NCBI GenBank assembly: GCA_032123355.1
Contig: JAQBFM010000060.1
Coordinates: 1-51,189 of the forward strand
Source: Lentisphaerales bacterium
Lineage (GTDB): Bacteria > Verrucomicrobiota > Kiritimatiellia > SPBP01
Reading direction: 5' to 3'
Length of the DNA: 51,189 nucleotides
Part shown: positions 41,916 to 48,143 of the stretch, piece by piece
Numbering within the stretch: the stretch's first letter is position 1
Layout of the letters: the number at the start of each line of letters is the position of its first letter
The notes under the pieces: model-generated
The model's database searches: none
The model's input: the letters and a program-made list of their open reading frames with translations, nothing else
Told to the model about the DNA's origin: nothing
Made by a program: the position numbers and the translations under genes

Positions 41916-43220
41916 CTAAGCGGAAGCCTGCGGCGCGGGCCGCAAGTTCCTCGGCTCCTTGAAGCCGCGCAGAAGAACGAGCGACCACACCATCATCGCC
42001 GCCGACAGCAGCGCCGGAATCGTGAAGCTTACGAAATACGCGCGGACAATAGCGCTCGCCGCGACTGCCGTCAGCATCGCCGGCAGCATCACCGCCGATA
42101 CAATCGCGAGGTATGTCGGCCGCCTGCGTGGCGGACAGATCTCCAGCCGCACCGTTGCGTCCCCGATCAGATTCAGCTCAAACGCAAGGCCCAACAGGAA
42201 GAACAGCACCATGAACACTGCGTTACTCTTCGTCATTATCGCAAGCAAGCAGGAGCCAATGTAGATTGTCCGCGAAATCGCCATCAGGATCTTGCCGCCG
42301 CACCGGTTTCCCAGCCAGCCTGCAAAGAAATTGCCGGTCAGCCCGCCGGTCATCTGCGACGAGACGAGCAGGCCCAGAAACGCTTCAGGCTCCCCCGTGG
42401 CATCCAGTGCATGTATCCCCAGGAACGGCAGCATGATGAAGATACCCTTCGAGCAGGCGCTCGCGCCAATGAACGCACGGACCTGAGGCTCGCTACGTAT
42501 CAGGCCGGGCAACTCACGCATATAGGCAAGAAAAGGACGGCGTTGCGTGTCCGCATGTTCACGGCGAGGCGGCTCCCTGATAAGCGCAAAGATGCCGTAC
42601 GACATCATCATCAGCGCAACAACAATCGCGTGCAGAATCCCGTAACCCGTTGTCCCCGGGTAGCGGGCCAGCACCAGCTTTATCGTCATGCCCGCCACAA
42701 TCCCGACAACTGATCCAATAATTGACCTCAGCGCCCAGACCGAAGCCATGCGTTCCTTGGGTATTACGTTTGCCGTCAGCTCCTGCCATGCGCTGAAGCC
42801 AATCCCGCCCGTGACTCCCGAGAGGAACGGGGCCAGTGCCACCAGCGACAGCGTAAGCAGCGGACGAGACGTTCCGAACATGAACAGGCTCAGCATCGCC
42901 AGCAGAAATGGAATCCTCTGAAAGGCGCCCGTGATCAGGACCAGTGGTTTCACCCGGTGAAGCCGTTCCACCAGATGTGATGTAAAAAGAGACGGCCATG
43001 CGATGCCCAGCATCATCATCATAGGCATCAGCGCTATCAGCCAGGTGGGACCGTTCAACGAGCGGATCATTACCGGCATCACCGTTTGTGCCGAGAGGAA
43101 AGTCATCGCGCCGATGAACAGCCCGCCCTCGATGCCGTGTGCGAGATGGTTGTTCCTCGCAATGCGCCTCGCGTCCGCGCCCGGCTCCCTTTGTGCCTTC
43201 TTGTCACTATTGGCGTTCAT
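41916..43220 (-). CDS. MFS transporter
   Basis: About 12 hydrophobic helices, GWLGNRCGGK loop motif, PPRRRPTY, KEPR terminus. Confidence 0.85.
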   Translation of the reverse strand: MNANSDKKAQREPGADARRIARNNHLAHGIEGGLFIGAMTFLSAQTVMPVMIRSLNGPTWLIALMPMMMMLGIAWPSLFTSHLVERLHRVKPLVLITGAFQRIPFLLAMLSLFMFGTSRPLLTLSLVALAPFLSGVTGGIGFSAWQELTANVIPKERMASVWALRSIIGSVVGIVAGMTIKLVLARYPGTTGYGILHAIVVALMMMSYGIFALIREPPRREHADTQRRPFLAYMRELPGLIRSEPQVRAFIGASACSKGIFIMLPFLGIHALDATGEPEAFLGLLVSSQMTGGLTGNFFAGWLGNRCGGKILMAISRTIYIGSCLLAIMTKSNAVFMVLFFLLGLAFELNLIGDATVRLEICPPRRRPTYLAIVSAVMLPAMLTAVAASAIVRAYFVSFTIPALLSAAMMVWSLVLLRGFKEPRNLRPAPQASA

Positions 43221-43471
43221 CTGTGTCTATCCGTGTTCATACGTGGCTTGCCCTGAGCATAGTGAAGGGTTGCATGTTCTTGTATTGCGTTGTCCTGCAG
43301 TTCTTGGCGTTCTTCGCGATCTTGAGCGCGCCAGCGCGGGTGTAAGAATTCGCAGTTTCTATCCTCTATCCTCTATCAGTTCCCCCTCATCCCTCAGCCT
43401 TCCGCCTTCATCCATCATCTATCAGTTCCCCCCACACCCCCACACAGTCAGTTCTCTGCGTCTCTGCGCGA
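43216..43471 (+). repeat. Repeat module cluster 2: CAGTT-punctuated short-tandem-repeat array
   Basis: CAGTT at 43298, 43353, 43377, 43423, 43449; 43321-43381 is 60/61 identical to 46222-46282. Confidence 0.85.
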
Positions 43472-44531: not shown

Positions 44532-45833
44532 ATGTCAAACACAATTGATCCCAGCCGACAGTCGGAACTCGTGCAGGAATTCCTCTACGCATGTGCTTTC
44601 TGGATCGTCGCCGCCGACGAAGAACTCAAGCCTGGTGAACAGACCTGGCTCAACAGTCAGTTCGGCAAGCAGCGAAACGATGAGCTCCTTATTCAATTCT
44701 CCGCACTCGAAGGCGACCGGTTCTTCCAGGTCCTGGACGATCTTGCCCGGGCAGTGGACGACTCCGCAAAGCGCAGTATTTACCCGGGACTCATCTCGTG
44801 GCTTCAATCCTGCTGCGGTCAAGATGGGGACATGGGCAATGCCGAAACAGATGTCCTGGTCGAACTCAAGAAACGACTATCGCTTGACACTGAAATCCGC
44901 AGGCTCACCACCGTCGTCAGTTCCGAAGAGGACACACCCACCCAGGACGAAAGGGCCGAGACCCGAATTCTGCGCGGACACACCGGCGAAGTATACGACG
45001 TCTCCTTCAGTCCCGACGGCGCCACATTTGCATCCGCATCCGAAGATGCAACCCTCAAGCTGTGGAATGCCGTCAGCCTCGAAGAAATCAGGACACTCGC
45101 CGATCATTCGAACGGCGTAATGCGCCTGAAACACTCGCCCGACGGCAACCGACTCTATTCCGGCGACAGGAGCGGAAAGATCAACATGTGGAACGCCACG
45201 GACGGCTCGCTTCTCGCGAGCCACACGCTCAAACGACAGGGCGGCGTCACCAGCATGGCCATTGCGCCCGACGGCAAGATGCTCGTTGTCGGCACCGAGG
45301 TCGGTCGGGTCATATTACTCGATGCCGACAGCCTGACAGAATCCCGGACTCTCACGCTCCAGCATAGCGGGGTCATCCGGTCCCTATGTCTCAGCATGAA
45401 CGGCAAAACAATCGTCACCGGTGGTGACGACAAGATCGTGCGCACATGGAACGTGCAAACCGGCTCTGTTGAAAAGGAACTCGACGGGCACGAGGACGGA
45501 GTCCTTACCCTGTGCGCTACGGCCGACGGCAAGCGAGTCCTGTCCGGGGCCAGGGACAACACCGTCAAGTTATGGGACCTTGCCGAGGGCAAGGCAATTC
45601 GCACTTTCGTGGGACACTCCTTCAGCGTCTACGGTGTCGATCTCAGCAGGGACGGCAAACTCTGCGTATCCGGATCCTGGGATCACACCGTCAGGCTATG
45701 GAGCATAGAATCCGGTCAGCAACTTGTTGTCTACGAGGATTACTCAAGCCGATTCAACACCGTCGCATTCGACGCCGACGCCACCCTCATCATCGCAGCC
45801 TCCTCCGCCGGCACTATTCATTGCCTTCGCTAG
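44532..45833 (+). CDS. WD40-repeat protein with helical TerB-like N-terminal domain
   Basis: About seven GH...W[DNS] repeats (e.g. [27 protein letters not shown]); N-terminus has AD.E...E and DG....E pattern. Confidence 0.85.
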
Positions 45834-45868
45834 TCCGCTGCCTGCGAAACACCGAATATGCAAACAAA

Positions 45869-46213
45869 GAACTACTGTCCACGAATCTACACGAATAAAT
45901 GCAGAACCACGGATGGACACGGATAAATGCACACGCTATGAGGAACAGGATGGAGCTCGTTTACAGATATGGCGGAGCATGAACCTGACCCGTTGAGCCG
46001 CGGATCCCGCGAAGCGGGATCCAGCAATGGCATCAGGAGCTGAGCCGGGAAACAGGTTTCCCTGCGCAGTTCCTGACTGCCATGCGCCCCGATTCATAGG
46101 GGCGCGGCTCAACGTACCTTCAGATTCTTGCCCGGCATCGTGTTCGCCGAAGGCGGGCTCTGGTGCTGGGCCCCATTCGTGTCTATTCGTGTGATTCGTG
46201 GGCAAGGCAGTTC
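45869..46213. mobile_element. MITE-like element with imperfect inverted arms made of CACGAAT repeats
   Basis: Left GAACTACTGTCCACGAATCTACACGAATA (45869-45897) versus reverse complement of 46184-46213, GAACTGCCTTGCCCACGAATCACACGAATA. Confidence 0.55.
45991..46114. repeat. REP doublet (REPIN/BIME-like) cruciform
   Basis: CGTTGAGCCGCG / CGCGGCTCAACG ends, each with its own hairpin (GGATCCCGCGAAGCGGGATCC; GCGCCCCGATTCATAGGGGCGC), inner stem and GGGAAAC/GTTTCCC core. Confidence 0.75.
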
Positions 46214-46365
46214 TTAGCGCCCTTGAGCGCGCCAGCGCGGGTGTAAGAATTCGCAGTTTCTATCCTCTATCTTCTATCAGTTACTCCCACACTCCCACAC
46301 CCACATACTCCCACACAGGCAGTTCCCCATCCTCTATCCTCTATCAGTTACCCACACACGCAGTT
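46175..46365 (+). repeat. Repeat module cluster 3: CAGTT-punctuated short-tandem-repeat array
   Basis: CAGTT at 46208, 46254, 46278, 46320, 46345, 46361 separating TCCTCTA, CTCCCACA and other modules. Confidence 0.88.
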
Positions 46366-46366
46366 C

Positions 46367-47518
46367 CTAAACAGTCCCACTCTTCAGGAACTCATGGTTC
46401 ACTGGTGCGGTCACTGTCTTTCCATTTGTCGAAACGAATGTTGCGCTGCCGACCCCGAAACTCACCGATGCCACCTCGTCAAAACCGCGCGGCACCTTCA
46501 CCACGCCCTGGATATAGTTTACTGATGTCGGACGTTTTGCAGAAAGCACAGCAGCCGTCGGGATGCCCGCATCTGAAACCGGATTCGCGCCGACCGATGC
46601 CGCCAGCCCTTCGGCGAAATATGCACACACATCTTCAAGTCCCAGGCACCGGTTTCGCCCGTCCCATGGAGGCTCATGCCTGCCATGATTCGAAATCCAG
46701 AATACTGTTGCCGGCAAAACCGCCGGATCCTTCAGTGAAAACCAGGCATACCCAGCCTTCCGATTCACTGCCACCGTCCAAGCCGGATCCGTGCCGCGAC
46801 GATTGAAAACCGACAGCAGATCCGTGAAACCTTCTCGAACCGGAAACTCAGTGCAATCCCCGTATGCAGGCTTCTTCCAGAGCAGCGGCACCTTCTTCAG
46901 GCTGCCGAACTTTTCGTTTATCGCAAGCGACTGGTATTCACGTCCCGCCGGGTTGCTGAAAAGGGTGGGGGCCGTCATTCCGAACACGATCGGACTCGTC
47001 GACACCTTCACACAGCCCGGTGTCTCTGGAATCGCCAGCGTTGCGTGATGACCCAGCGGCATCCGGCCATTAATCCCTTCAACCACGTCTTTGCAGTAAA
47101 CAACATTATGCCCGTCCACCAGCGCCAGTTCCTTTGTCACCCAGCCACGCCTGACCTTTGCAGCAAGCGTCAGCCGGATCGATGTCACGCCGCCACTGGA
47201 CTGCACGCCCGCCAGCTTCCATTTCGAGCCCGCCGGTTCGCCATGGACATCGTGCTGTTCGCCCTTCCACTTCTCGACGTTCGCGCCGAAAGGAAGACAG
47301 AAGAAATCGCCCCGTAACGGACGCAACACCGGCACCGGCAGTTTCCGGTGTTCGTCCTGCCATGGGCTTATGTAATACGGCTGAACCGGCGTGCGGCCCG
47401 CGCGATAGAACTTCACCGGGGCCATGTGCCCGCCCAGTTCCGTGACCGCCAACTCCACATCTTTGCTCAGAATGATCCAGGAAGGCTGACCTGCAATGAT
47501 TTTCCGGACTGGTTTCAT
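46367..47518 (-). CDS. Conserved hypothetical protein, probable galactose-mutarotase-like fold
   Basis: ATG 47518 with AAGGAG; GGHMAPV, LRGDFFCLPFG, HGE, GHHATL, PWDGR..CLGLED. Confidence 0.7.
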   Translation of the reverse strand: MKPVRKIIAGQPSWIILSKDVELAVTELGGHMAPVKFYRAGRTPVQPYYISPWQDEHRKLPVPVLRPLRGDFFCLPFGANVEKWKGEQHDVHGEPAGSKWKLAGVQSSGGVTSIRLTLAAKVRRGWVTKELALVDGHNVVYCKDVVEGINGRMPLGHHATLAIPETPGCVKVSTSPIVFGMTAPTLFSNPAGREYQSLAINEKFGSLKKVPLLWKKPAYGDCTEFPVREGFTDLLSVFNRRGTDPAWTVAVNRKAGYAWFSLKDPAVLPATVFWISNHGRHEPPWDGRNRCLGLEDVCAYFAEGLAASVGANPVSDAGIPTAAVLSAKRPTSVNYIQGVVKVPRGFDEVASVSFGVGSATFVSTNGKTVTAPVNHEFLKSGTV

Positions 47519-48143
47519 TGTTACTCCTTCTCGTTTGCAGCGTTCTGTCAATGACTCTGTCCATCACAGGGCAATCAATTCTATGTCAACGACTGGCAGC
47601 AGAACCGCCGATCTCCCCCCTTTTTCAATATCCAATATCCAACGACGCGCCTGAGATTCCGGCGGGTTACCGACGGCAATCTCCAGTCGTCTGGTTCGCA
47701 CATTCCCCCGATCATGTCAATGGCCGTCGGCTTCGCCTCGGCCCTCACATCGACTAAGCAGGTCGATTAAGCGTATCCGACGAAGGGCGGGATTACGTGT
47801 GCGAGTGAGTGTCTGCACACTTCCCTCCTACACTTCATCGATCCACTTCGTCTCCACACTTACTCGGTTACGCTTAGACGACCCACTTGATCGATCCAAT
47901 CTTTCATGCCAACAAGGAATGTGCAAGTTTCAAGGTTGCGAAGCAGAATGCAGTATCCTTGGTCATTGGATATTCAGAGTATTCCCATTCTCCATGACCC
48001 GGGTGACGGTCCCCTTGTCCAATTGCGCAGATGCCAACTCTTCAACTTCTTGACTCTTCTGTCAAGCCCTCCGATACTGTCGCCAAGAAGTGACAGGGTA
48101 ATGGCAGTTCACTCAACGAGCATGAACACAGAGAGAATGGATG

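Follow-up and report, generated by a model that had tools for sequence, protein, structure and literature searches.

The window analysed here, the whole of a 51,189-nucleotide contig of Lentisphaerales bacterium (JAQBFM010000060.1; contig C60 of a 3.35-Mb assembly, G000, of 231 contigs with 56% G+C), contains an array of short repeat blocks between two convergent genes: a conserved hypothetical gene encoding 383 aa on the minus strand (46367..47518, stop codon TAG at 46367-46369) and a WD40-repeat gene recognized by domain scan on the plus strand (44532..45833). Within 158 nt of the minus strand, six copies of the pentamer AACTG (46361-65, 46345-49, 46320-24, 46278-82, 46254-58 and 46208-12) are interspersed with blocks of other sequence, and the first is separated from the TAG by a single G, exactly as described in an original prediction made by a model from the letters of the window. 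The array is judged to be one copy of a lineage-specific, genome-wide mosaic of long-unit simple repeats, situated at a gene 3' end.

All units of the array, each consisting of AACTG and the block that follows it, have the same orientation, and their blocks are ordered B-A-B-A-core-D. Unit 1 (46350..46365) carries CGTGTGTGGGT, a short TGTGGG-type block; unit 2 (46325..46349) carries ATAGAGGATAGAGGATGGGG, an ATAGAGG-type block of period 7; unit 3 (46283..46324) carries a TGTGGGAG-type block of period 8; unit 4 (46259..46282) carries ATAGAAGATAGAGGATAGA, again of ATAGAGG type; unit 5 (46213..46258) carries a conserved core (CGAATTCTTACACCCGCGCTGGCGCGCTCAAG...), of which about a dozen copies are found on other contigs; and unit 6 (46175..46212) carries a CACGAAT-type block with a period of about 8-10. 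The blocks between successive AACTG copies are 11, 20, 37, 19 and 41 nt long, and the final block of 33 nt reaches 46175. The expectation that most modules are built from their own tandem unit holds for four blocks, in which Tandem Repeats Finder (TRF) called units of 7-10 nt (46175-46200, 46259-46278, 46283-46316 and 46329-46345), but not for the fifth, the 41-nt core, which is not a microsatellite. The blocks are of low complexity, non-palindromic, and devoid of internal open reading frames (ORFs), and the array folds only weakly (z -2.2, with 3 of 200 shuffles equally good). Four G3 runs in unit 3 (46286-46312), with loops of 7, 3 and 5 nt, form a predicted G-quadruplex-type pattern.

The background frequency of AACTG throughout the genome is 1.05 per kb per strand, close to the one per kb that had been assumed. 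When copies separated by gaps of at most 80 nt were linked, 200 uniform simulations gave 0.09 clusters of five copies and 0.01 clusters of six copies per strand, whereas five clusters of five and one cluster of six were observed on the two strands together; clusters of at least five copies are therefore present at 6 loci, versus approximately 0.2 expected on both strands.

As a check on the assembly, contigs from DNA runs of three other studies were found to tile pieces of the array with identical sequence: 46242-46328 was matched without differences (X2, X14), and further identical contigs extend from 46317, 46329 or 46333 to 47200 (X2, X14, X16). These matches rule out a private assembly artefact. 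No single public contig spans the whole array, and the contigs end within repeats.

A genome-wide mosaic bordered by AACTG

A second array, with five copies of AACTG, is located on the minus strand of the same window (43298..43453), 78 nt upstream of and in sense with a gene for an MFS transporter (41916-43220, minus strand). Units 4 and 5 of the first array are 98% identical over 61 nt to 43321-43381, a stretch that comprises an ATAGAGG block, AACTG and the core. Dozens of partial matches to the locus on more than 40 contigs were found by BLAST against its own genome; nine of the match blocks start at AACTG (query position 119) and eight end just before one (position 142). When the arrays are cut at AACTG, they resolve into a small set of reused block types of constant polarity, 3-60 nt in length: the ATAGAGG type, the TGTGGGAG type, a 41-nt block beginning ATAGATGATGGATGAAGG, the core, and the CACGAAT, CGCAGAG, ATATCCA and CGACAAAG types. 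Such mosaic copies constitute a dispersed family, as the original prediction had supposed. The first AACTG of an array is preceded by unique DNA, and the final block ends without a terminal AACTG, so AACTG is the 5' part of the unit.

The genome as a whole is rich in tandem modules, with 1225 TRF rows of period 6-10 and unit families such as ACGAGG (87 rows), AATATCC (31), ACACCTG (28) and ACCTCTG (27). The border rule was examined on 1186 merged tandem modules of period 6-10, by unbiased ranking of all 5-mers in 13-nt windows at their 2360 borders. AACTG/CAGTT was the commonest border 5-mer, with 85 + 91 = 176 occurrences versus about 44.6 expected. Its 5' context is rich in purines, and among 200 cases the base that follows is A or C in 87%. 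The idea that AACTG marks junctions is thus upheld, both by its first rank at module borders genome-wide and by its place on the 5' side of units. The overall intergenic excess of AACTG, in contrast, is only 1.16-fold (rank 176 of 512 5-mers), which led to its rejection as a genome-wide signal in itself and indicates that the signal is specific to module borders.

Outside this genome, the array was sought at orthologous loci of the 383-aa gene. Seventy-eight metagenome loci with no more than 62% identity were fetched and 76 were scanned, none of which (0/76) has the array after the gene, indicating that it is a lineage-specific addition; at a few of them, other heptamer blocks directly follow the stop codon. 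In two genomes of the same family (G001 and G002), this protein query found no orthologue of the 383-aa gene, and the array DNA has no match. The 24-nt centre of the core has no exact match in 185,579 genomes of other species. A two-junction pattern that occurs six times in this genome was found once elsewhere in genome contigs, in an archaeon without module context, which is attributable to chance, and all 19 viral matches to a 15-mer of AACTG plus block sequence likewise lack module context. A three-AACTG pattern searched in 121 genomes of the class was discarded as not discriminating, being dominated by GAA-CTG codons; five genomes seemed to have an excess of AACTG triplets, and what matched there was coding DNA or plain AACTGCC heptamers. 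None of the other genomes searched showed the exact AACTG grammar. Individual block types (TGTGGGAG, CACGAAT, and ATCCGTG...GGTTCTGCA) are present in further genera of the class, frequently immediately after stop codons or in inverted pairs. At two loci of another genus (L005, G018:C2; L009, G036:C85), inverted CACGAAT-type pairs form a long intergenic hairpin followed by an A/T run, which looks like a terminator.

Position at gene ends and growth of the arrays

For 22 arrays of at least two units, both flanking genes could be assigned. A co-directional gene precedes 15 of them, and 11 begin no more than 20 nt past its stop codon; the next start codon is 32-643 nt away (12 co-directional cases). 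Tandem modules in general are also concentrated at gene ends: 87 of 508 intergenic modules lie within 30 nt of a gene 3' end, compared with 52.4 under random placement in the same gaps. The G-rich strand of these 87 is sense in 69, antisense in 16 and neutral in two, a bias that is absent farther from gene ends. G-rich tandem modules after stop codons may be a lineage-wide gene-end signal. The unit families found among post-stop G-rich modules include GTGTGGGAG/GTGTGAG, GATGAAGG, GCGGAGT, GGTGTCAGG, ATAGAGG and GGACCACGG.

One contig from an RNA library (X17; 46238-46387, no differences) connects the last 21 nt of the 383-aa gene with blocks 1-4 and the first part of the core. This library also covers portions of the gene, and nothing in 45500-46126. 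This hints that the array is within the 3' untranslated region of the transcript of the 383-aa gene.

Comparison of arrays within the genome shows that they grow by tandem duplication of AACTG-plus-block units together with slippage within blocks. Three perfect 46-nt units (AACTG plus a 41-nt block) stand at the end of contig C174 and two such units on C86; contig C222 has a B-A-B-A-B higher-order repeat; and an array on C196 differs from its paralogue on C62 by a 19-nt tandem duplication that contains AACTG. The six AACTG copies of the reported array would have arisen from a duplicated two-block unit (TGTGGG type plus ATAGAGG type) whose copies later diverged in length, beside the core and the CACGAAT block, whereas the spread and mixing of copies among loci would be due to recombination among dispersed copies or to some mobilisation. 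This account of the origin is considered probable. The original prediction had instead proposed repeated site-specific insertion at AACTG, which is not what the visible changes record: in C174, C86, C222 and C196/C62 they are tandem duplications that carry AACTG along.

A candidate function and the alternatives

The composition of the two strands suggests what the array might do. On the antisense strand of blocks 1-4, C makes up 43% and G 7%, and the C/G ratio over 78 nt is 8.75, compared with a 99.9th percentile of 4.11 for the genome. Rho (PF07497, 116.6 bits) is among the proteins encoded; it loads on untranslated RNA that is rich in C and poor in G, and is one of the main factors suppressing antisense transcription. 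Carried in the 3' untranslated part of the 383-aa gene's transcript, the array would present a G-rich, C-poor sense strand on which Rho acts poorly and which could fold into a G-quadruplex, whereas antisense transcripts coming in from the convergent side would be loaded with Rho and end before they reach the gene. Because of the preference of Rho and the composition of the strands, the sense RNA would be invisible to Rho and the antisense RNA a strong loading site, and such a one-way reading fits the place of the array between two convergent genes. Function as a strand-polar gene-end element, as predicted from composition and position, is put forward tentatively. The overall explanation judged best, namely a mosaic repeat family that grows by duplication and acts at gene ends, is held with moderate confidence.

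Long-unit simple repeats are common in some bacteria. The grammar found here is clear: one 5-mer opens many kinds of block, right after stop codons, with a G-rich sense strand and an extremely C-rich antisense strand. If the proposed function is correct, such repeats would be one-way insulators of gene ends, which sense transcripts pass and on which antisense transcripts load Rho, and a widespread class of so-called junk repeats would have a function. They could also aid the annotation of transcript ends in Planctomycetota, a group whose canonical terminators are little known. Should the insulator idea fail, the locus is still a tidy example of mosaic repeat growth by duplication.

Several points weigh against this explanation. 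Its functional part draws on composition and position only, and neither the core nor the CACGAAT blocks are G-rich in sense. A 347-kb sample of a relative, genome G022, shows neither the AACTG border rule (2/182) nor a clear post-stop polarity (three sense, two antisense), so any function is not general to the class. Seven of the 22 arrays lack a preceding co-directional gene, and the second array of the window (43298-43453) is in a divergent region, upstream of a gene. Gene positions were taken from a crude map of longest ORFs and not from a gene caller, and 43 loci inside ORFs and 21 at contig edges were dropped from the 156 considered (arrays and single AACTG-module units). The X17 contig may derive from contaminating DNA, and contigs show neither strand nor 3' ends. 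Finally, duplication multiplies AACTG within arrays but leaves unexplained why it borders many unrelated block types.

The arrays could instead be a neutral or selfish by-product without function, slippage-prone repeats having accumulated where they do least harm, after stop codons, with AACTG no more than a conserved remnant of a few ancestral composites that spread by copying. That arrays grow by duplication can be seen directly, and the distribution of the family is patchy: the two same-family genomes G001 and G002 give no match to the array DNA, modules are sparse in G022, and the array is absent from all 76 orthologous loci scanned. Forward-strand blocks such as AACTGATAGA contain stop codons and so cannot be maintained in sense within genes. 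The 69-to-16 sense bias is not what mere tolerance would predict, since both orientations are equally harmless past a stop codon. Moreover, pieces of the array are identical across three other studies, with no length variants, unlike hypermutable junk (although contigs hide rare variants), and AACTG borders many unrelated block types. Neutrality is considered rather unlikely.

Alternatively, the arrays might be multivalent platforms, in RNA or in DNA, in which the purine-rich motifs GAGG, GGAG, AGGA and AAGG together with AACTG bind a repeat-binding protein or the anti-Shine-Dalgarno end of the ribosome, controlling mRNA stability or translation, a role suggested earlier for TAACTGA repeats. 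S1, cold-shock or CsrA-like proteins have been proposed to bind arrays of TAACTGA heptamers (MacGregor 2015, PMC4679880). GAGG or GGAG cores are present in most of the post-stop G-rich unit families, and the strand polarity of arrays relative to genes is consistent. No candidate binding protein was found adjoining the arrays, which follow stop codons with the next start 32-643 nt away (12 co-directional cases), unlike the TAACTGA repeats; and GAGG-like words are expected of any G/A-rich repeat. This possibility is judged unlikely.

The mechanism of the original prediction, repeated insertion at AACTG, for example by an HUH/Y1 transposase that inserts 3' of a pentanucleotide so that each insert brings its own AACTG, is regarded as very unlikely. 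Elements of the IS200/IS605 group insert 3' of a specific target of 4-5 nt. Consistent with such targeting, units have AACTG on their 5' side, no other 5-mer is as frequent at borders, BLAST match blocks start or end at AACTG, and the genome has five Y1-transposase-like matches (PF01797). The blocks, in contrast, are 3-60-nt low-complexity sequences that fold weakly and lack the subterminal hairpins such enzymes need, and the indels observed are tandem duplications in which the duplicated stretch includes AACTG. The two complete Y1 genes inspected have as flanks not AACTG arrays but inverted repeats of another kind (GGGTCAGCCC...), and no link between the Y1 genes and the arrays was found. No gain or loss of whole modules at AACTG was detected in contigs of the three DNA runs and one RNA run, none of which bridges the array, so that the uncovered parts are uninformative; the joints listed among public contigs have short sides and probably come from paralogous copies. 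The RAYT, recombinase, reverse transcriptase or cassette genes that paired arms might enclose are neither enclosed by nor consistently adjoining the arrays: none of the 11 genome matches to tyrosine recombinases (PF00589) is on contig C60, and the two reverse transcriptases of the genome lie elsewhere.

The two complete Y1 genes (L089, G000:C75:213-1220; L090, G000:C40:4721-5743) encode IS200-like proteins, roughly 335-340 aa in length, whose C-terminal extension is long, and have their own short tandem blocks as flanks. A DnaA-C-like DNA-binding domain of helix-turn-helix type in these long proteins was considered and rejected (one hit, 17.3 bits, versus a cut-off of 31.5). On contig C196 (3341-3500 and 3770-3928), a distance of 270 nt separates one of the six large AACTG arrays from the C-terminal fragment of a tyrosine recombinase, at a contig end, the only such neighbourhood seen.

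Less probable still is that AACTG is the recognition or cleavage word of a strand-specific DNA activity, such as a single-strand HUH-type nuclease or a priming or template-switching polymerase, that seeds or pastes blocks at gene 3' ends. If it were so, the arrays would record successive events of a novel micro-insertion mechanism rather than slippage alone. Mis-joining of repeats in a metagenome-assembled genome, to which several arrays at contig ends (C174, C86, C196) and the ending of public contigs inside the array might point, is scarcely credible for an array that is internal to a 51-kb contig, is covered by overlapping contigs of identical sequence from three independent studies, and is joined to the end of its gene, through blocks 1-4 to the start of the core, in an RNA-library contig.

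Described repeats and the surrounding composite

The original prediction recognised no described system. This stands for the arrays themselves, of which no description was found in the literature searched, where longer block strings are also absent, but relatives have been described (PMC4692102, PMC4679880, PMC3733652). The closest in form are the long-unit simple repeats of Xanthomonas (GGGAATC) and Nostoc (GGGGA(C/T)T), reported by Rehm et al. (2015, PMC4692102) to be approximately 90% intergenic, at a mean of 28 nt from the upstream ORF and nearer to its end than to the next ORF, and stable in position; the same source cites a 2007 report of heptamer over-representation and the heptamers of Calothrix. 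The likeness consists of head-to-tail units of 6-9 nt that are G-rich, have G-quadruplex potential and lie near ORF 3' ends (PMC4692102). Head-to-tail units of 6-9 nt were found in the TRF-called blocks here but not in the 41-nt core, and on the crude gene map the modules are mostly intergenic and nearer to the upstream 3' end. The arrays differ in having several unit families of one polarity with a shared AACTG opener, and in joining these to a non-repetitive core and a structured repeat. The G-rich strand of the Xanthomonas repeats is reported to have no clear sense preference, with 30-35% each way (PMC4692102), in contrast to the post-stop bias of 69 to 16 found here.

TAACTGA direct repeats, described in Beggiatoaceae, cyanobacteria and some Bacteroidetes as head-to-tail heptamers just upstream of start codons (MacGregor 2015, PMC4679880), contain the word AACTG, and two of the six junctions of the reported array read TAACTGA. 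Other shared features are an intergenic location, a polar orientation with respect to genes, stop codons when read forward, and a patchy phylogenetic distribution (PMC4679880). However, AACTG here separates other blocks, and arrays follow stop codons: 11 of 22 are within 20 nt after a stop, and placement just upstream of starts was not found. Tandem TAACTGA (TAACTGATAACTGA) does not occur in the genome, in which single TAACTGA occurs 119 times, so the head-to-tail arrangement is lacking.

Clusters of repetitive extragenic palindromic (REP) sequences, or bacterial interspersed mosaic elements (BIMEs), have a palindromic unit of 20-40 nt with a GTAG or CGTC tag, and roles as terminators or in mRNA stabilisation have been proposed for them (Di Nocera et al. 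2013, PMC3733652). Like the AACTG arrays, they are mosaics of a few short motifs, tandemly amplified at gene ends and sometimes touching the stop codon (PMC3733652); Y1 genes (RAYT-type) are present in the genome analysed here. Mosaic, tandemly amplified motifs at gene ends were indeed found here, but the unit is a non-palindromic microsatellite block with an AACTG prefix, hairpins being restricted to the flanking composite, outside the array blocks.

The alternation of a short constant element with variable segments in one polarity recalls CRISPR arrays and integrons. A CRISPR array was rejected: the constant part is only the 5-mer AACTG, whereas CRISPR direct repeats measure 24-48 bp (PMC3733652), the blocks of 3-60 nt are irregular and recur at many loci, and no cas gene was found among the eight neighbouring ORFs scanned. 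The original prediction had been right on this, and also in holding that the array is not one simple variable-number tandem repeat, its blocks being irregular and reused. An integron cassette array was likewise rejected, as the low-complexity blocks of 11-41 nt with 5-nt separators contain no ORFs or attC, and no integrase is encoded on the contig.

The array was first delimited at 46175, but repeated DNA continues beyond that point, long paralogous copies extending to about 46104 and a structured repeat to about 45975. Together these form a composite repeat that occupies the 533-nt gap (45834-46366) between the stop codons of the WD40 and 383-aa genes. In the long copies, the array is followed by a conserved hairpin-like stretch (46127..46174, minus strand; GCCCAGCACCAGAG...TGCCGGGC); a similar element, with a different inner stem, occurs twice in a genome of another genus (L006, G020:C252). 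Next is a multi-stem structured repeat (45975..46126, minus strand; fold z-score -8.57), in which a closing stem (46104-46113 with 45992-46001; GTTGAGCCGC/GCGGCTCAA) closes three hairpins. At least nine paralogous copies exist; the nine that were aligned have compensatory changes in 8 of 39 predicted pairs, and the third hairpins plainly co-vary. Both a structured non-coding RNA and a palindromic mobile repeat are conceivable here. At gathering score, Rfam reported only tRNA in the whole window and no family for 45975-46126; with the limit relaxed to E<=10 across 45800-46420, the only matches were chance ones, microRNA-like and others, far below threshold. ARAGORN found one tRNA-Met, far from the array.

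The composite is closed by inverted CACGAAT/CACGGAT-type blocks, read as ATCCGTG/ATTCGTG (45879..45929, minus strand), whose ...ATCCGTGGTTCTGCA motif is common to other genera. CACGAAT-type blocks thus stand in opposite orientations at 46175-46207 and 45879-45929. A miniature inverted-repeat transposable element (MITE) would have terminal inverted repeats and a target-site duplication around a defined unit; the ends of copies here are ragged and mosaic, and no target-site duplication was identified, no systematic search for one having been made. A scan of 45800-46450 gave no promoter-like site and one terminator-like site, not above shuffles.

Two ORFs overlapping the composite were rejected as genes: one of 89 aa (45936-46205, minus strand) has no Pfam match and loses its frame in paralogous copies through gaps of 1, 2, 3, 4 and 6 nt, and one of 202 aa (46198-46806, plus strand) has no Pfam match and is antisense to the conserved 383-aa gene. 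A nine-codon ORF (ATGCCGGGCAAG...TGA; 46131-46102, minus strand), whose start and stop are kept in two sequence variants among the long copies, is more likely to be part of the hairpins than a gene.

Besides the WD40 gene and the MFS transporter gene, the neighbours of the array include a methyltransferase-domain ORF and a gene for a DUF4139 protein. The product of the 383-aa gene matches no Pfam family but has 2735 homologues at E<=0.001, the best of which are mostly 381-386 aa long, with source names of Planctomycetes and Phycisphaerae. Short tandem blocks also lie upstream of this gene, at 47626-47642 and 47811-47861 (inverted ATATCCA-type blocks and a 13-nt GAAGTG-rich unit), so that it is flanked by repeat blocks on either side.

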